This document shows positions 35,431-42,711 of a DNA stretch of 64,000 nt, in pieces (position 1 is the first letter of the stretch; the number at the start of each line of letters is the position of its first letter). Source of the DNA: an uncultured Chloroflexia bacterium (GTDB lineage: Bacteria > Chloroflexota > Limnocylindria > Limnocylindrales > CSP1-4); the NCBI GenBank assembly GCA_963752475.1, contig CAVVYR010000006.1, positions 288,001 to 352,000 on the forward strand, in the 5' to 3' direction. The position numbers were made by a program, and so were the translations under genes. The notes beneath the pieces were generated by a model. It saw only the letters and a program-made list of their open reading frames with translations, made no database searches and had not been told where the DNA came from.

Positions 35431-35967
35431 ATGCGAATCTACGAAGGTAGTCCGCGGCAGGACTATGAGGAAGTCCTGCGGTCCATCGGTGCCTTCGTCG
35501 ACCAGCGCGGACTGCACGAGATCCTGCTGGCGGAAGCGCCCGATGGCTTCATCGTCCAGGGCATCGTGGGCCAGACGCATGACTCGTCCAACTGGTCCGA
35601 CCCGACGATGACCATCAGCAAGGAGACCTACACCTTCCTTGACGAGGACATCGCTCGCTTCCTCGAGGACTCCCAGGCTCGGCGGCGCACCGGTCCCCAG
35701 AACGATGGCTCACCGATGGCCGGCCCCTACGAGCGGGTGATGCGCGTCATCGGCCGCTATATCGACGACCAGAAGCCCAAGGACGTGTTCTTCTTCGAGC
35801 AGGAAGGGGCCTACGTCCTGCGCCTGCTGATGAACACTCGTCTGGGCAGCAAGCACCAGCTGGCCGAGTTCACCGCCGCCGACCTCGAGTCGATGGTGCG
35901 CCAGGGTCCTGGGCTGCGCGGTGAGGAGCTTCCCAAGCCTCCCGCTGAAGCGCCGGCAGAGGCGTAG
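35431..35967 (+). CDS. Hypothetical protein with internal domain duplication
   Basis: GGAGG RBS, strong coding bias; YEEVLRSIGAFVD versus YERVMRVIGRYID. Confidence 0.85.
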   Translation: MRIYEGSPRQDYEEVLRSIGAFVDQRGLHEILLAEAPDGFIVQGIVGQTHDSSNWSDPTMTISKETYTFLDEDIARFLEDSQARRRTGPQNDGSPMAGPYERVMRVIGRYIDDQKPKDVFFFEQEGAYVLRLLMNTRLGSKHQLAEFTAADLESMVRQGPGLRGEELPKPPAEAPAEA

Positions 35968-36341: not shown

Positions 36342-37172
36342 ATGCCCGACGCCACCGCCCAGCCGACCTTCGATCCCGACGGCGCGCCCGTCAGCGTGCT
36401 GCTCGACTTCGACGGCACCATCAGCCTCGAGGACACGGGTGATGCGTTGCTCGCGCGTCTCTTCGATGACCAAGAGCTGACGCGCCACATGGACGAGCTC
36501 TACATGAGCGGCGAGAAGGGCTCGCGCGAGCTCATCGCCTGGGATATGGAGATGCTGCCACGCGACGCGGACGTGCTCTGGGCTGAGGTCGACTCGCTGC
36601 CCGTCGATGAGACGCTCGCCGATCTGCTGGCGACGGTGCGCGAGGCGGGTGCCGCAGCCGAGGTCGTCTCCGATGGTGTCGGCTTCCACATCGAGCACAT
36701 GCTCGCCCGTATCGGTGTGACCGACCTGCCCGTGGCCACCAACCGCACCGTCGTGGGGGAGGGAGGCGCCGGCGTGAGCTTCCCCTTCGGGCACGCGTCC
36801 TGCTTCGTCTGTGGTACCTGCAAGCGCGAGCGCATCCGGCTGCACCGTGATGCCGGCCGGGCCGTCGTCTTCGTCGGCGACGGGCCCTCGGATCGCTACG
36901 CGGCCCACCACGCCGACGTCATCTTTGCCAAGGGCTCGCTGGCGGTCTGGTGCGAGGTCGAGAACATCCCCTATGAGCCGTGGGAACGATTGGCCGACGT
37001 GGCCGAGTGGCTGGAGATGGCGCTGCTCGACGGCCGACTACCGGCGGCGTCGGAAGGGTACGAGAGCTGGGCCGCCGAGGCCCGCCCGGAGGTCGAGACG
37101 TTCATCTGTGGCCCGGAGGTCTGGGAGTCAGGCCGCACCGTGGCCGGCCGGGCACCGGGCAGCAGGGACTGA
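36342..37172 (+). CDS. HAD-IB phosphatase (MtnX-like)
   Basis: DFDGTI, VVSDG, CGTCK, VGDGPSD, IFAK. Confidence 0.88.
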   Translation: MPDATAQPTFDPDGAPVSVLLDFDGTISLEDTGDALLARLFDDQELTRHMDELYMSGEKGSRELIAWDMEMLPRDADVLWAEVDSLPVDETLADLLATVREAGAAAEVVSDGVGFHIEHMLARIGVTDLPVATNRTVVGEGGAGVSFPFGHASCFVCGTCKRERIRLHRDAGRAVVFVGDGPSDRYAAHHADVIFAKGSLAVWCEVENIPYEPWERLADVAEWLEMALLDGRLPAASEGYESWAAEARPEVETFICGPEVWESGRTVAGRAPGSRD

Positions 37173-37244
37173 CGGCTCGCCGACTCATCGTCGCTGCCGT
37201 ATCCTTCGCCGCACCAGAGCGACCGCAAGCCGAGGTGCAACCAC

Positions 37245-37863
37245 GTGTCTCCCCGACGACGACTCACCGGCATCGCCGCGATGTCCGCGATCACCCTCGC
37301 CACAGCCGGTATCGCTGGCGCACCAGCCACGGCGCAGGAGGACGACGCTGCTGCCGAGTTGCGCGCGATCCTCGAGGCCTTCGGCGGCGGTGACGTGCCG
37401 GATGAGGTGCTGACGCAGATCCTGAACCAGTACGAGGCCATGGGCATCGACCCGATGATGATCTTCGGGGGTATGGACCCCGACATGCTCGAGGCCATGG
37501 CTGAGATGGGTGGCGCGGACATGGACGAGTCGGCCTTCATCAAGATGTTCATGGGCGGCGCGGACGACGAGGCTTTCTTGAAGATGGGTGACGCTGCCTT
37601 CCCCAAGGTGGAGATCCAAGGTAGATGACGCCGAGGCGTTCCCGAAGGTGGAGATCGAGGACGAGGCGTTCCTGAAGTGGGATGCCGAGGACGAGGCGTT
37701 CCTGAAGTGGGATGCCGAGGGCCAGGCGTTCCTGAAATGGGACCCGATCGAGGGTGGTGGGGCCTTGGCCGCCGTGGAGTCCGCGCTGGGTGAGGCGGCC
37801 GCCCAGGGCGACATCGACCCGGTCACCCTGGCGACCATCCTCGAACTGCTGCAGGAGCGATAG
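37245..37863 (+). CDS. Secreted acidic protein with seven AF[LIP]K repeats; +1 frameshift near 37616
   Basis: Signal peptide ending ATA|QEDD; ORFs 37245-37628 and 37588-37863 carry the same motif and join by removing one C. Confidence 0.75.
37657..37746 (+). repeat. 30-bp coding tandem repeat x3 (EDEAFLKWDA)
   Basis: GAGGACGAGGCGTTCCTGAAGTGGGATGCC x2 plus one degenerate copy. Confidence 0.92.
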
Positions 37864-37881
37864 CGGCACATCCGGGTCGAT

Positions 37882-39339
37882 ATGGATCGCGATGCCGTCG
37901 CCGCGCTCGGTGAGCGACTCCGGCTCATCGGGTACGACGCGCCGCGCATCCAGCGTCGGCTCGGCCGTATCCCGGCCCGGCTGACGCCCTCGGTCGTCGC
38001 GGTAGCCGAGCGACGGGCCGGGGACGACGTGCTCGGGCAGGCCGTCCGGCTGTGGAACCTTGGATCGACACTCTCTACCGAGGCCGCGGTCGCCACGTTC
38101 GGCGATGTCGACATCGAGGCGCTTGTCGGATGCGGGCTGGTCACCGCCACGTCTTCGGAGGTGCGAGCGGTGCTCCGGCTCTCCCCGGTCGCCGACCGAC
38201 TCCACGCGCATGACTTCGACCGTGGTGGGGGCCTGTCCCGGGACCACGTCGTTGGGATCGGCCCGGCAGCGCTCACGCTTTCGGGCATCACGCCGCGCGC
38301 CAGGGTCGGGCGAGCCCTGGACCTGGGAACCGGTTGCGGCGTGCAAGCGTTCGGCCTGGCCCGGCATGCATCCTCTGTCGTAGCCACGGATATCAGCCAG
38401 CGTGCCGCGTGGACGGCCCGGCTCGGTGCTTCCCTCAACGGCCTCGGCTCGCTCGACATCCGGGTCGGCGATCTGCTGGAACCGGTGGCGGGCGAGGACT
38501 TCGACCTTATCGTGTGCAATCCGCCGTTCGTCGTCTCGCCGGCCGAAGAGCTGGCATTCCGCGACGCTGGCGAGCGAGGCCACGCGCTATCCCGCGGGCT
38601 CGCGAGATCCCTACCGGCCAGACTCCGACCCGGCGGGGTGGCCTGTGTCCTGGTCAACTGGATCGTGCCGCCCGATGTCGACCCGGCAGCGGAGGTCAGG
38701 ACGTGGTTCAGCGACCTCGAGGCAGACGTGCTGCTGCTCCACCATGAGACGCTCGATCCCGTGGCGTACGCGCAGCGTTGGGCAGGCCTTCCCGTCGATG
38801 CCGATCTGGGCACGGCGCGCGGATTCCTCGACCGCTGGCTGACGGAGCTTCAGCGGCTCGGGGCCGCCAAGGTTGCTGCCGGTGCCCTTGTCATCAGACG
38901 GACCGACGCCCGTCCGCGCTGGCGCCTCGTCCGCATGCAGAATCGGCCCTCTGCCGGCGGCCCCCAGGTACAACGGATCTTCGATGCGCTCGGCCGCTTC
39001 TCGGGCCCGGCGGACCCGGCCCTGGAGTCGGCGGTCTTCAGTCTGGTCGCCGGTCACCGGGTCGAGCAGCGACTGCACTACGGCTCGGCCGGCCATGTCG
39101 CGGGACCGGCCACGCTCCGCCTCGATCGTTCTGCGGGCGTGCTCGCGACGGTCCCGGCCGAGCTGCTCGAAGCGGTCTTCCTGATCGACGGTCAGCGCGA
39201 TCTCTTGGCGATCGCAGAGGATCTAGGCGACTCGCGCGAGGTCTCTGCCGCCGCGGTCATGCACGATCTGGCTCCGCACGTGCTGGAGCTGTTCGAGCTC
39301 GGCTACCTGGAGCTCCGGGATGCCCACGGTCCCACCTAG
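37882..39339 (+). CDS. Class I SAM-dependent methyltransferase, HemK/MTS-like with N- and C-terminal accessory domains
   Basis: ALDLGTGCGVQ, ATDIS, FDLIVCNPPF; C-terminal IDGQRDL...L..L...GYL segment. Confidence 0.9.
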   Translation: MDRDAVAALGERLRLIGYDAPRIQRRLGRIPARLTPSVVAVAERRAGDDVLGQAVRLWNLGSTLSTEAAVATFGDVDIEALVGCGLVTATSSEVRAVLRLSPVADRLHAHDFDRGGGLSRDHVVGIGPAALTLSGITPRARVGRALDLGTGCGVQAFGLARHASSVVATDISQRAAWTARLGASLNGLGSLDIRVGDLLEPVAGEDFDLIVCNPPFVVSPAEELAFRDAGERGHALSRGLARSLPARLRPGGVACVLVNWIVPPDVDPAAEVRTWFSDLEADVLLLHHETLDPVAYAQRWAGLPVDADLGTARGFLDRWLTELQRLGAAKVAAGALVIRRTDARPRWRLVRMQNRPSAGGPQVQRIFDALGRFSGPADPALESAVFSLVAGHRVEQRLHYGSAGHVAGPATLRLDRSAGVLATVPAELLEAVFLIDGQRDLLAIAEDLGDSREVSAAAVMHDLAPHVLELFELGYLELRDAHGPT

Positions 39340-39354
39340 ACCTAGACTGCTTTG

Positions 39355-39936
39355 ATGGGTGTGATGGACGAGGCCGAAGAGGTCCACTTCACGACCGCTG
39401 ACGAATGGCGCTCGTGGCTGACGGCGAACCACACGCGCGAGCAGGGGGTCTGGCTCTTGTCGTACAAGCCGCGCACGGGAAAGCCGGCCATCGACTACGA
39501 GGACGCGGTCTGCGAGGCCCTCTGCTTCGGTTGGATCGACGCCACCTACCGCCATGTCGATGATGAGCGAGGAGCCCTATGGTGGTCGCCGCGCCGGAAG
39601 GGCAGTGTCTGGGCGCGCACGAACAAGGCTCGCGTGGAGCGACTGGAGGCCGAAGGCCGCATGACCGAAGCTGGCCGCGCCGCCATCGAGCGCGCCAAGG
39701 CCGATGGGTCGTGGACCCTGCTGGAGCCGGTCGAGGACCTCATCGTCCCCGATGACCTTGCGGCGGCGTTCGCCTCACGCCCGGGAGCGCAGGAACACTG
39801 GGAGTCGTTCGCACCTACGGCCCAGCGTGCGTACCTGCTCTGGGTCTACACCGCGAAGCGCAAGGAGACACGAGCGAGGCGCGTAGCGGAGTCGGCTGCG
39901 CTCGTCGCCGCTGGACTACGGCTCCAGGATCGCTAG
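39355..39936 (+). CDS. YdeI/OmpD-associated family protein
   Basis: WRSWL..NH, EALCFGWID, PRRKGSVW..TNK, AKRKETRARR. Confidence 0.9.
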   Translation: MGVMDEAEEVHFTTADEWRSWLTANHTREQGVWLLSYKPRTGKPAIDYEDAVCEALCFGWIDATYRHVDDERGALWWSPRRKGSVWARTNKARVERLEAEGRMTEAGRAAIERAKADGSWTLLEPVEDLIVPDDLAAAFASRPGAQEHWESFAPTAQRAYLLWVYTAKRKETRARRVAESAALVAAGLRLQDR

Positions 39937-40123
39937 GATCCGCCCAGTTCGTTCGATCGGATCGCAAGTGGTGACAGCAGTCAACGATCGGTGCGGTTCT
40001 GGGCGCTCTGCGTGGAGAATATGTACCATCATGGCGTCACATCTCCGGACCATGACTGGTTCGGGTGGGTCGCCTGCCAATCGTCTTCTTCGCATTCTTC
40101 CGCGGTCCCACCAGGAGATCCAT

Positions 40124-40987
40124 GTGAATACGTCTCAAGACCGATCACACGCAGCAGCGGCGGAGAGGGAGGCCGACGCTTCGAGCGGTCTGTCGCGATC
40201 ATCTCGCGGTCAGGCCCTGGTCGAGTTCGCCCTGATCCTGCCGGTCCTGCTGCTCATCCTGCTGCTCACCGTTGACTTCGGGCGCCTTTTCTTCAGCTAC
40301 GTCGCGGTCAACAACGCGGCTCGCGAAGCGACCAACTACGCTGCCATGCACGCCGGCGATCCTGACTACGACGCCGCTGCCTTCGACGCCGCCGTGGGCC
40401 AGGTGGCTGCCGCGGAAGCCAACGTCCAGGCTCAGGGCGGCGAGAACGAGATCTCCATCACCGGCCCCGTGTGCTTCGCACCTGGCACCGAGGTGGCCAT
40501 GGACTGCAACAGCGCCGCCCAATATGCCGGTGGTATCGGCAACCATGTCAGGGTCACGGCGAGCCAGCCCTTCGACTTCATGACGCCGATCATCGGTGAC
40601 GTGGTCGGCAGTCAGCTGGTGCTGAGCGCCTCTGCCACAGGAGCCGTCCTCAACCCCATCAACCCCGCTGTACTCGACGGCGGCGACGGTGACGATGGTG
40701 ACGACGGCGGCGGCGACGGTGACGATGGTGACGACGGCGGCGACGGTGACGATGGTGAGACGGGCGACGGTGACGATGGTGACGACGGCGGCGATACGTG
40801 CACCGTTCCGCTGCTCACGGGTAGGCTCTTCAACAACCCCAGCGCCCTCAACACTTGGCATAACGAAGCCAACTTCACGGGCACACTGACCAACGACGTC
40901 CCCAGGGACAACCAGAAGATCAAGTACCAGAGCCTTGCCGCGTACTCCGAGCAGCCATGCGACTCGAACATGCGGGTCTGGCGGTGA
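40124..40987 (+). CDS. TadE-like pilin with acidic GDD stalk and C-terminal PASTA-like domain (cassette A)
   Basis: [15 protein letters not shown]; GDGDDGDDGG repeats; CTVP...W..ANF...QSL. Confidence 0.85.
   Translation: MNTSQDRSHAAAAEREADASSGLSRSSRGQALVEFALILPVLLLILLLTVDFGRLFFSYVAVNNAAREATNYAAMHAGDPDYDAAAFDAAVGQVAAAEANVQAQGGENEISITGPVCFAPGTEVAMDCNSAAQYAGGIGNHVRVTASQPFDFMTPIIGDVVGSQLVLSASATGAVLNPINPAVLDGGDGDDGDDGGGDGDDGDDGGDGDDGETGDGDDGDDGGDTCTVPLLTGRLFNNPSALNTWHNEANFTGTLTNDVPRDNQKIKYQSLAAYSEQPCDSNMRVWR
40676..40795 (+). repeat. Coding low-complexity repeat (Gly/Asp)
   Basis: GGCGACGGTGACGATGGTGA units x4. Confidence 0.9.
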
Positions 40988-41571
40988 GACCGCGCCATGG
41001 CGGGAGGTCGGCGACTACGGACCAACAGGGTCAGACCCTGGTCGAGTTCGCGATCGTGCTGCCGGTCTTCCTGCTTGTGCTCTTCGGTCTCATCGATGTC
41101 GGTCGGCTCGTGTACACCAACGCAGCCGTTTCACAGGCCGCTCGTGAAGGCGCCAGATTGGCCGCAGCCGAGACCGCTTGGACCGGGGTCACGGATAACC
41201 CGGCTTGCGTCGCCGACGCCAGCCTCATCACCGCGGCAAACCCGGGAGCCTTCGTCTGCCCACTGGATGTGTCCGCGCTCAAGTCACATGTGACGGACGC
41301 GGCACAGCGCATGACGGTGGCGATGGGACCTGTGGCCAGTGTCCATCTCAGCTGCAACACCGGGGCAGACGACGACCAGGCCCCTTCCGGCGAGTGGACC
41401 GAGTCATCGGGGGGAAACGGGTGTGCTGACGGTGGCGGCGATCCGTTTAGTGCCCCGGGCGACCTCGTCTCGGTCCGCGTCCTGTACGACTACCAGTTCT
41501 TCACTCCCATCATCAGCACCTTCCTCGGTCCCACGACCCTGAGCGGCTCTGCGACCATGACAATCAACTAG
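40984..41571 (+). CDS. TadE-like pilin (cassette A)
   Basis: QGQTLVEFA, QAAREGAR; GTGA overlap. Confidence 0.88.
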   Translation: MRPRHGGRSATTDQQGQTLVEFAIVLPVFLLVLFGLIDVGRLVYTNAAVSQAAREGARLAAAETAWTGVTDNPACVADASLITAANPGAFVCPLDVSALKSHVTDAAQRMTVAMGPVASVHLSCNTGADDDQAPSGEWTESSGGNGCADGGGDPFSAPGDLVSVRVLYDYQFFTPIISTFLGPTTLSGSATMTIN

Positions 41572-41580
41572 GAGGCCAGC

Positions 41581-42711
41581 GTGCATCGTCGAAGTCGCAA
41601 GCCACAGCAGGGACAGGCCATCGCCCTCTTCACCCTCGCTCTCTCGGCCCTCATCCTGGCGAGCGCCGTGGTCGTGGATGGCGGGTTCGCTTTCGCCGAG
41701 CGCCGCCAGGCACAGAACGCGGCCGACTTCGCAGCCATCGCCGGAACCCGTATCGTCGGCATCGCCAAGACCGGTCAGCCTGCTGGAGCAGGAACGGCGG
41801 CAAACGTCCGCAACGCGGTCACCTCGACGCTCTCAGCCAACGACGCTTCGCTGGTCAGCGCCCGCTATGTCGACCAGGCCGGCCAGGACCTCGGTGATGT
41901 GACCTCGGCAACGGCTATCCCGCAGGACGCATTCGGCGTCGTCGTCGAGGCCCGGACCGACTGGTCGCCGTTCCTCCTCGGCATCATCGGGGCCGCAGAC
42001 TGGAGTGCGTCCGCGCCGGCCACTGCCTACACGTCCGGCACAAGTGGCGACGGTGGGGTCATGCCCGTGGCTGTGTCTGACACCGCCTACGAGAGCTTGA
42101 CCCAGTGCCTGGTCACGGAGCTCAGCGACTGCATCGGCGACCTTACGCCCGGCACCAACATCAACGCCGGCAGCTTCGGCTGGCTCACGTTCGGACGCAA
42201 GACCAGCAACAAGCATCAGTGCCCGTGGGAGAACAGCCTCAGGATGGACGACAATCCCGACGATTGCGAGCAGAACAACGGCTTCCTGAACCGCCAGATC
42301 GGACCGCCGTCGGTGACCCACGGCTGCTGCGGCCCCGTCGGGGAGGATGATAGTGCGGACCGGATCGGAGCCTACACCGGCAACACACACGGCGACTTCA
42401 GCTACTACATCGAGAACGAACTGGTCGTCTGGGTCCCGATCTATGACGATACCGTCGGCCCACAGGGCTCCGGTTCTGGCGCCTACTACGACATCATCGG
42501 CTTCGGGCCGATAGTGCTGACCGAACAGGACGGCAACTCCAACTCGAGTGCCCACGTGAAGTGGCTGAAGGGCAAGGCCGTCCTCACCGACTGCACGGGC
42601 ACCGATGGTGAGTCGGCCGTGGATTGGTCCATCGAAGGCGCCAGCTACTGCAAGGGCCCGGCCGGCAACTTCACCTTCGGAGCGACTGGGGACGTGCAAC
42701 TCCGTCGCTGA
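41581..42711 (+). CDS. TadG-like Cys-rich pilus tip protein (cassette A)
   Basis: QGQAIALF, AQNAADFAAIAG, GSFGWL, WVPIYD. Confidence 0.85.
   Translation: MHRRSRKPQQGQAIALFTLALSALILASAVVVDGGFAFAERRQAQNAADFAAIAGTRIVGIAKTGQPAGAGTAANVRNAVTSTLSANDASLVSARYVDQAGQDLGDVTSATAIPQDAFGVVVEARTDWSPFLLGIIGAADWSASAPATAYTSGTSGDGGVMPVAVSDTAYESLTQCLVTELSDCIGDLTPGTNINAGSFGWLTFGRKTSNKHQCPWENSLRMDDNPDDCEQNNGFLNRQIGPPSVTHGCCGPVGEDDSADRIGAYTGNTHGDFSYYIENELVVWVPIYDDTVGPQGSGSGAYYDIIGFGPIVLTEQDGNSNSSAHVKWLKGKAVLTDCTGTDGESAVDWSIEGASYCKGPAGNFTFGATGDVQLRR

Follow-up and report, generated by a model that had tools for sequence, protein, structure and literature searches.

Does an exported bacterial protein that repeats one short lysine motif serve as the substrate of the methyltransferase encoded beside it? 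The question is raised by two adjacent forward-strand genes, between 37245 and 39339, in a 64,000-nucleotide stretch from an uncultured Chloroflexia bacterium (contig CAVVYR010000006.1), the whole of which is called the window here. The upstream gene encodes an acidic protein with a predicted export signal and seven copies of an A-F-x-K motif. The downstream gene encodes an S-adenosylmethionine (SAM)-dependent methyltransferase that ends in a winged-helix domain of the PqqD type. An exported motif-repeat protein paired with such an enzyme is a good candidate for a new protein-methylation system. The favoured reading, to which we assign a probability of about one half, is that the enzyme would N-methylate the lysines of its partner iteratively before export. 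Very few systems are known in which an exported bacterial protein has a methylating enzyme of its own (Rickettsia OmpB, Acinetobacter AtaA). Lysine choice would be easy to study in a compact pair of this kind, whose short target motif can be counted, and the pair could give a tool for site-directed peptide methylation.

The repeat protein and its lysine motif

Two forward-strand open reading frames (ORFs) in different frames cover the upstream gene, at 37245-37628 (127 residues) and 37588-37863 (91 residues). Frame 1 ends at the TGA at 37626-37628, and the remainder lies in frame 2. When AGAT at about 37623-37626 is taken as a single step, the two join in a 205-residue read-through protein, P0121. 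Intact homologues of 156-280 residues align across both halves, neither of which matches Pfam or NCBIfam. The features of the gene are as follows.

37245-37863, forward strand: gene for an acidic A-F-x-K repeat protein with an export signal, 205 residues by read-through of a +1 frameshift
37245-37334, forward strand: signal-peptide-like N-terminus of 30 residues (RRR, hydrophobic core, ATA before Q), read from the translation
37533-37544, forward strand: motif copy 1, A-F-I-K
37572-37583, forward strand: motif copy 2, A-F-L-K
37596-37607, forward strand: motif copy 3, A-F-P-K
37617-37656, forward strand: 40-nucleotide extra repeat unit that holds the frame break, read from the sequence
37636-37647, forward strand: motif copy 4, A-F-P-K, inside the 40-nucleotide unit
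37666-37677, 37696-37707 and 37726-37737, forward strand: motif copies 5-7, A-F-L-K
37632-37747, forward strand: 30-bp tandem array of 3.9 copies with 88% matches (Tandem Repeats Finder), holding motif copies 4 to 7
37750-37860, forward strand: conserved C-terminal segment, family consensus ExALAQAAAxGDIDPATLxxILExLPEE

The N-terminus of P0121, VSPRRRLTGIAAMSAITLATAGIAGAPATA followed by Q, resembles a signal peptide and is probably an export signal of the Sec or Tat type. An earlier, sequence-only reading of this DNA had described a signal peptide at this position, an acidic region and seven motif copies with invariant A, F and K. The read-through protein bears out each point. The segment ending in ATA before Q is signal-peptide-like, Asp plus Glu number 43 against 12 Lys plus Arg, and the copies are SAFIKM, EAFLKM, AAFPKV, EAFPKV, EAFLKW, EAFLKW and QAFLKW, with A, F and K the same in all seven. 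Nearly every lysine was said to sit in the motif, and in fact all of them do (7/7). The last copies were correctly read as a 30-bp tandem expansion, now delimited by the array. The stop codon TAG at 37861-37863 and the methyltransferase ATG at 37882 are 18 nucleotides apart, and the coordinates agree with the 485-residue NPPF methyltransferase reported at that distance on the same strand.

The motif recurs in a family of proteins. A genome of the same genus (G006) has an intact 238-residue homologue in the corresponding position, alike in its N-terminus, F-x-K motifs and C-terminal segment, and a methyltransferase 54% identical to that of the window comes after it. A four-copy profile of the repeat protein retrieved 13 further proteins from a collection of 5.8 billion, and a HMMER pass over 1.84 billion representatives returned 27 family proteins at E ≤0.001, 18 of them at ≤1e-10. 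The read-through protein gave only weak partial matches in 401 genomes of the order (best foreign E 1.7e-4), which were taken as chance. Among the 91 lysines of 14 family members, Phe stands at -2 in 59, a hydrophobic residue at -2 in 80 and Ala at -3 in 60. Against these 59 F-x-K occurrences, 2000 shuffles yielded 4.19 as the mean and no more than 12 in any one; the family consensus is (D/E)(D/E)-A-F-(L/P/I)-K-(L/V/I/M)-(E/G/D)-D. The tandem-amplified unit differs from member to member, being AFLKWDAEDE in the window and LFLKIEGIDGEA in P0137. Amplification of different units in different members points to selection on motif copy number. The signal peptide (consensus MSPxRRLxGIAALSAAxLATAGLAG) and the last 30 residues are unusually conserved, and many members carry a Cys pair, ECxDxxC, immediately behind the probable site of cleavage. 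For a close homologue, P0126, the ESM Atlas model is of low confidence (predicted local distance difference test score, pLDDT, 0.47; predicted template-modeling score, pTM, 0.25). Its best feature score there is 0.77, below the threshold, and its structure rows reach template-modeling (TM) scores ≤0.32. The poor model is consistent with disorder of the partner.

The break in the reading frame bears on whether the module is alive in this genome. The sequence-only reading had placed a one-base break near 37616. A break is present, about 10 bases farther to the right: it falls within about 37617-37626, inside the 40-nucleotide unit, and the gene as read from the sequence is left in frame when that unit is removed. 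The contig of a relative that is 95% alike (X3, record 14) matches to 37616, and its next 10 letters fit the text after 37656 at 9 of 10 positions, a weak indication from one low-depth contig. Only two Logan runs, both labelled freshwater sediment metagenome, hold much of the stretch (X1, share 0.51; X2, 0.27), and they may represent the sample from which the assembly came. Their near-identical contigs are without 37410-37655 (X1) and about 37558-37660 (X2), and the break is uncovered in both. The module may be defunct in this genome, or the assembly may be in error at that base. A recent pseudogene would mean that the frameshift is real, that a truncated 127-residue protein with three motifs is exported and that the methyltransferase is a remnant. 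The break does stand in the assembled sequence, it lies in a repeat unit that one relative may lack (weakly indicated), and 13/13 homologues read in one unbroken frame. Against this explanation, the downstream frame is open and conserved to its last residue, the enzyme gene is intact with all motifs present, and assemblies often err by a single base within repeats. We regard a pseudogene as possible but doubtful. A promoter and terminator scan of 36900-39600 gave 0 promoter-like and 0 terminator-like sites, a result that is uninformative for a high-GC organism.

The methyltransferase and its C-terminal domain

The downstream gene is divided into three domains, as follows.

37882-39339, forward strand: SAM-dependent N-methyltransferase, 485 residues, intact, cytoplasmic
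37990-38169, forward strand: helical N-terminal domain (N-domain), Pfam DUF7059 (residues 37-96), 28.5 bits against a cut-off of 27
38296-38544, forward strand: Rossmann core, Pfam MTS (residues 139-221)
38518-38529, forward strand: NPPF motif (residues 213-216)
38944-39336, forward strand: PqqD-like winged-helix C-terminal domain (C-domain; residues 355-485), with the fold of the recognition elements of RiPPs (peptides made on ribosomes and modified after translation)

DUF7059 is also matched by 15/17 close relatives of the enzyme, and the N-domain aligns with those of GenN and AerE. Across the 17 relatives N213, P214 and P215 are invariant, F216 is nearly invariant, and the SAM-binding residues are invariant or nearly so. 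For the catalytic domain, the Pfam lists of the enzyme and its close relatives hold only generic methyltransferase families. The AlphaFold2 model of the enzyme has a mean pLDDT of 90.4 and a pTM of 0.89. A profile of the 17 relatives searched against solved structures matched GenN (E 6e-20), AerE (5e-16) and HemK (7e-12). Foldseek with the model gave AerE at E 2e-21 (TM 0.71-0.73 by target, about 385 columns, 24-25% identity), GenN at 1.5e-19 and PrmC at about 1e-8; PKMT2 and Rv2067c, at about 1e-9 each, superposed poorly overall. The enzyme belongs to the uncharacterised DUF7059/DUF7782 family and is a member of neither the PKMT/KmtA, AerE nor PrmC families. No paper was found under the name DUF7059.

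The C-domain was compared with known folds in two ways. A profile of 34 C-domains searched against solved structures matched PqqD 3g2b (E 8e-5) and 5sxy (6e-4). Among the 34, Pfam matched DUF7782 in 25, PqqD in 16 (best 2e-7) and PKMT_2nd in 3. In a model of the domain (pLDDT 93.5) it forms a three-strand sheet and a three-helix winged-helix. Its top Foldseek matches are carbamoyltransferase C-domains (GdmN, 1e-5; NovN, 4e-4). PqqD 5sxy is matched at E 2e-3 (TM 0.67 by target), and two leader-peptide binders, TbiB1 and lasso B1, at 0.057 (TM 0.69) and 0.087 (TM 0.63). Rv2067c, ThcOx and PKMT1 (E 0.1) were matched as well. The model suggests a domain of the peptide-recognition type with a predicted binding role. 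The enzyme can be described as a predicted amine- or amide-N-methyltransferase module joined to such a domain.

The closest solved relatives differ in their acceptors. AerE is an iterative asparagine side-chain N-methyltransferase of proteusin RiPPs (PDB 7RC2-7RC6), and the published account describes Tyr137 and Asp141 as deprotonating the amide and as essential, Asn231 and Phe234 as the motif residues, and the enzyme as active without a leader (PMC9060474). The window enzyme resembles AerE and PoyE in its helical N-domain, its Rossmann core and its N-P-P-F type motif, and AerE is the best fold match. AerE acts many times on one ribosomal peptide, as is proposed for the window enzyme. In the same account AerE is without a PqqD-like C-domain, whereas the window enzyme has one. 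AerE differs further in its substrate, D-Asn within a precursor of the nitrile-hydratase-like type whose making involves a radical SAM epimerase; proteusin genes were not seen among the four flanking window ORFs in Pfam, a screen that was not aimed at those families. GenN (gentamicin 3''-N-methyltransferase; PDB 5TYQ, 5U4T and others) is the best sequence-profile match, over profile positions 61-256. It shares a D-x-D motif ahead of the Rossmann fold (D111 and D113, both invariant in the window enzyme and its relatives), and its acceptor is an amine. GenN differs in acting on a small molecule within an aminoglycoside cluster, whereas the window's immediate flanks are not of that kind, and it is without a C-terminal recognition domain, at 320-341 residues compared with 485. 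PrmC/HemK enzymes share the MTS-type Rossmann core and the (N/D)PP(Y/F) motif, and differ in having another N-domain, no C-domain and a GGQ-loop substrate. The window enzyme scores 55.8 bits against TIGR03534 (PrmC; cut-off 199.1), over residues 142-254 only. The NPPF motif by which the sequence-only reading had linked the enzyme to the HemK/PrmC group stands, and membership of the family does not.

Which atom would such an enzyme methylate? One alternative to the favoured reading holds that the two proteins cooperate and that lysine is not the acceptor. The F-x-K motif would dock the PqqD-like domain while a Gln or Asn amide or a carboxylate is methylated, or the partner's role would be that of a regulator or carrier of the enzyme. 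TbiB1 and lasso B1, among the fold matches of the C-domain, were solved with leader peptides, and the nearest relatives AerE and PrmC methylate amides. However, AerE Tyr137 and Asp141 face an invariant Gly125 and a nearly invariant Ala129 in the window enzyme, as seen in one HMMER alignment rather than a superposition. The replacement of the amide-activating pair by Gly and Ala fits a nucleophile that needs no such help, for example an amine. Asn and Gln are also few and unconserved in the repeats. Lysine methylation is favoured because no nitrogen nucleophile of the motif other than Lys is conserved, because the amide-activating residues of AerE are lacking and because the acidic motif is shared with the amine methyltransferase GenN. 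We consider docking without lysine methylation unlikely. Prediction of a complex between the enzyme (as an alignment), residues 13-91 of the partner's second ORF and SAM returned 'no answer' with a score of 0.00.

Lysine methylation of exported proteins has precedents. Rickettsia PKMT1 and PKMT2 methylate OmpB and Acinetobacter KmtA methylates AtaA (PMC8232902; bioRxiv 10.1101/2024.05.15.594293). Each is a dedicated enzyme for many lysines of one exported protein, an arrangement only proposed for the window pair, and the substrates differ from the window partner in being large Gram-negative autotransporters without a fixed short motif repeat. The sequence-only reading had drawn the Rickettsia analogy. 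It holds for the C-terminal winged-helix domain, which is of the same fold class by the PKMT_2nd and PKMT1 matches given above, and fails for the catalytic domains, which are not close (whole-model TM 0.28-0.30, root-mean-square deviation about 15). To our knowledge, the genes for outer-membrane lysine methyltransferases and their substrates have not been reported as adjacent pairs.

Linkage of the two genes

The partner is encoded directly upstream of the enzyme and on the same strand in five loci: the window, L007 (in G006), L033, L034 and L123 (in G399). Genes in foreign loci were taken as stop-to-stop ORFs filtered on third-position GC, and their starts are approximate. In the window the pair is flanked by a HAD phosphatase and an OmdA-family protein (four flanking ORFs, Pfam). 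The G399 pair is flanked by genes unrelated to these, with no HAD or OmdA match. In seven partner/enzyme pairs the longest contigs are of identical size (12086, 4042, 38522, 15444, 3719, 8187 and 5064 nucleotides), which is suggestive of one contig each; the pairs of 12086 and 15444 nucleotides are among the loci observed directly. In five genus genomes that lack the pair, the upstream genes are retained through the HAD phosphatase and other genes follow. The pair is absent whole from these genomes and therefore behaves like a single insertion or deletion. All enzymes for which a partner was seen belong to one clade with a Shimodaira-Hasegawa-like support of 100 (15/104 rows and 16/91 rows in two analyses). 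The partner profile found no match in 48 more distant loci with at least 900 nucleotides upstream. Upstream of a more distant enzyme, at L044 (38% identity), is a gene for a small secreted protein that has repeats of the AFYKIN type and, behind its signal, a Cys pair. The neighbourhood association that the sequence-only reading had proposed to look for is thus present in five loci, one of them with unrelated flanks, and its pairing of the repeat protein with a dedicated enzyme agrees with a linked unit whose enzymes fall in one clade.

Two side observations concern the surroundings of the pair. Two-component or LuxR-type regulators, the latter name being our assumption, were read just upstream of the pair at L044 209-2031 and L123 4274-4432, which is not the window gene order. 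In pair-less genus genomes the slot after the HAD gene holds another small secreted protein (L116 2388-2987, reverse strand; L117 830-1402, forward strand) with the internal repeat KACTGLSYGQLKN, and this slot seems to favour genes for secreted proteins.

The two genes might have no functional link. The enzyme would then have some other substrate, for example RNA, a small amine or a protein with a housekeeping role, and its position beside a fast-evolving secreted protein would be inherited. Gene order is common to most of the loci where the pair was seen, most of the wider enzyme family occurs singly, in differing contexts, and the substrate of GenN, the closest match by sequence, is an aminoglycoside. 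In contrast, the pair recurs in G399 with different flanks, the L044 enzyme is also preceded by a motif-bearing small secreted protein, and five genus genomes have the neighbouring genes but lack both members of the pair together. Partner types also follow enzyme clades, with 5 changes of label compared with 17.4 on average after shuffling, a descriptive comparison in which kin share labels. Together these observations make unlinked neighbours improbable.

Could the pair instead make peptides? In a multi-core RiPP the methylated repeats would be cut into signal or antibiotic peptides, with the signal peptide or the conserved ends as leader or follower. The core-like repeat units vary in number among relatives, conserved N- and C-terminal segments surround the variable repeats, the enzyme carries a domain resembling a recognition element, and a RiPP enzyme is the closest solved match to its fold. 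Against this, no protease, exporter (transporter) or immunity gene stands beside the pair in the window's immediate flanks (four ORFs, Pfam); G006 and L034 share those flanks by tblastn, and the G399 neighbours were read from ORF translations only. There are no uniform cleavage sites flanking the repeats, and the sister enzymes described below pair with folded structural proteins rather than peptides. The partner also has an export signal where a classic leader would stand, and such a signal is unusual for bacterial RiPP precursors. We consider peptide production very unlikely. In the available part of a 2024 review, RiPP lysine N-methylation is exemplified only by a fungal case (PMC11285071).

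The favoured reading, lysine methylation of the partner before export, can be laid out as a two-gene accessory module. The first gene product would be a very acidic, probably disordered and exported protein with lysines only in the context (D/E)(D/E)-A-F-(L/I/P)-K-(hydrophobic)-(E/D/G). The second would be a cytoplasmic N-methyltransferase of the AerE/GenN type (helical N-domain, Rossmann fold, NPPF) fused to a PqqD-like domain. It has no signal peptide and so could meet its partner only before export. The enzyme would bind the strand-like F-x-K motif and methylate the epsilon-amine of its lysine, copy after copy, and the product would be a secreted or surface protein with several methyl-lysines. 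The partner as substrate, lysine as acceptor, the timing before export and the role of the product are what we infer from this arrangement.

Several findings weigh against this reading. The partner gene is frameshifted in the window itself. Neither of the nearest relatives acts on lysine: AerE methylates an amide and GenN a sugar amine. The window C-domain itself has no Pfam PqqD or DUF7782 match, and DUF7782 was not found in its genome, although the domain can be aligned with 33 homologous ones. Most loci with a seen partner have the window gene order, G006 on the upstream side and L034 on the downstream side, so adjacency is partly inherited and the independent events are few. Nine of the 17 close enzymes are without a traced partner (P0002, P0005, P0006, P0010, P0013, P0015-P0017 and P0014, the last counted so only before the L123 locus was read), and three of these lie on long contigs of 69686, 29558 and 169602 nucleotides. 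The partner profile overlooked the divergent 400-residue partner of G399 in the genus search, and absences by that profile are therefore soft; its count of 2/49 genus genomes with a partner is too low, and the number is at least 3. When 83 loci of the wide family were clustered by neighbour, no neighbour family occurred in more than 6. Five genomes of the window's taxonomic family (G025, G179, G464, G323 and G252) have beside the enzyme neither the repeat protein nor the Hcp gene considered next.

Sister enzymes beside Hcp and tube-protein genes

Relatives of the enzyme outside the window clade stand beside genes of another kind. These links to Hcp, tube and ClpV genes came out only in searches by motif and by family, not in the clustering of neighbours. 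Three distant enzymes have a divergent upstream gene whose product begins MAFDAFLKIEGIDGES and is a T6SS_HCP domain (E 1e-33, 3e-36); position 1 of the T6SS_HCP profile is the F of FLKIEG. In tblastn searches over 101 enzyme loci, an Hcp-like gene lies within about 1.5 kb in 8, TssH (ClpV) stands beside the enzyme in 5, a double tube-domain protein with a twin-arginine (Tat) signal is directly downstream in 6, and a secreted protein of the L041 type is present in 4. The TssH neighbours score 939-1291 bits against a cut-off of 885, and the downstream tube-domain proteins match gp19, TIGR02241 and CIS1. Each of the eight Hcp-like neighbours opens with the first-strand sequence F-[LI]-K-[IF]. Four of the eight Hcp cases are in genomes of the window's taxonomic family, and in 4/4 of these genomes the only strong PF05638 match lies 99-851 nucleotides, by match coordinates, from the single enzyme homologue (L129-L132, in G160, G206, G419 and G207), in three different arrangements. 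In the four genomes, whose completeness is 83-89%, there was no match to TIGR03355 (printed label 'VI_chp_2'), which we take to be the sheath family TssC. PF05638 (Hcp) was not found in the window's own genome.

The partner motif resembles the first strand of Hcp (TssD). Its core, A-F-[LI]-K-[IVL]-[ED], matches the first strand of T6SS_HCP, and four partner-family members carry the longer F-x-K-h-x-G-h-x-G-E. The repeats of P0137 match the Hcp first strand at 11/13 positions, with an E of 2e-4 for one pair. The likeness is at the level of the motif only: the window partner differs from Hcp in that it is acidic, carries an export signal and matches Pfam in neither half. Two comparisons must be added to the findings set against the favoured reading. 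The full Hcp-like 10-mer occurs in 8/127 motif copies, in 4/24 proteins and in 0 window copies; the seven window copies, like most, share only the 6-residue core with the Hcp strand. A profile-profile alignment (hhalign) of the partner family with three Hcp proteins placed the motif on Hcp residues 5-18 with a probability of 1.1%, too low to count as a sign of homology.

The simplest account of these observations is that the enzyme family recognises an A-F-x-K-hydrophobic strand, which would be the Hcp N-terminus in some lineages and would be multiplied in the exported, probably disordered partner of the window clade. A bolder proposal extends the favoured reading to the whole family. DUF7059-MTS-DUF7782 enzymes would be widespread protein N-methyltransferases for the first-strand F-x-K of Hcp-type tube proteins, with the window clade as an offshoot. 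The enzymes would serve Gram-negative type VI clusters and orphan Hcp genes in the window's family. The window substrate would be an exported, disordered, many-motif protein, either a poly-methyl-lysine protein or a decoy of the tube strand. We hold this proposal as tentative and doubtful. If the link of sister enzymes to Hcp, tube and type VI genes is real, it would point to an unrecognised modification of contractile-injection tube proteins. By title, no paper on this enzyme family was found in the literature on type VI secretion, Hcp, SAM-dependent methyltransferases and gene clusters.

Further observations were made at the sister loci. L040, L053, L057, L058 and L066 place enzyme homologues inside type VI secretion clusters beside TssH/ClpV, and other neighbours at L057 and L058 have N-termini that presumably belong to TssG, VgrG, TssA, TssB and TssC. 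L108 was listed alongside L129-L132 among the orphan Hcp-like genes near a DUF7059-type methyltransferase. At L050, L062, L073, L075, L077 and L102 a protein of about 370 residues with a twin-arginine signal and two gp19/CIS1-like domains is encoded within a few bases after the enzyme; an exported tube-domain protein is odd in itself. The clade of L041, L042, L048 and L065 has a divergently oriented gene for a secreted protein of ~190 residues whose motifs are aromatic-x-K-hydrophobic (SFMKLDG, MYLKVDD) and whose sequence is unrelated to that of the window partner. A methyltransferase fragment from the Rhizobium etli type VI secretion system was considered as a relative and rejected as a homologue of an unrelated O-methyltransferase. 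The window's own genome holds a contractile-injection-like cluster ~78 kb downstream on the same contig (G000 contig C6, 404281-410907), with two gp19-type tube genes, a sheath-like ORF and an HExxH-type ORF that we take to be DUF4157-like.

Other parts of the window also merit description. Three forward-strand ORFs at 39968-42711 have TadE/TadG-like N-termini by reading, and the first contains a long Gly/Asp repeat (GDDGDDGG...). The OmdA-family gene (39352-39936) lies between the methyltransferase and these ORFs. We take neighbours in the window to be PsuK/PsuG and TadE-like. At 35431-35967 on the forward strand is a gene for a 178-residue protein that has no Pfam or NCBIfam match and is unusually constrained. 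Its residues 1-164 are 92-93% identical in five loci of four other genus genomes and 77% identical in a fifth genome, and a 62-residue match at the end of the G006 locus is 93.5% identical. The neighbours of the protein are 55-78% identical there.

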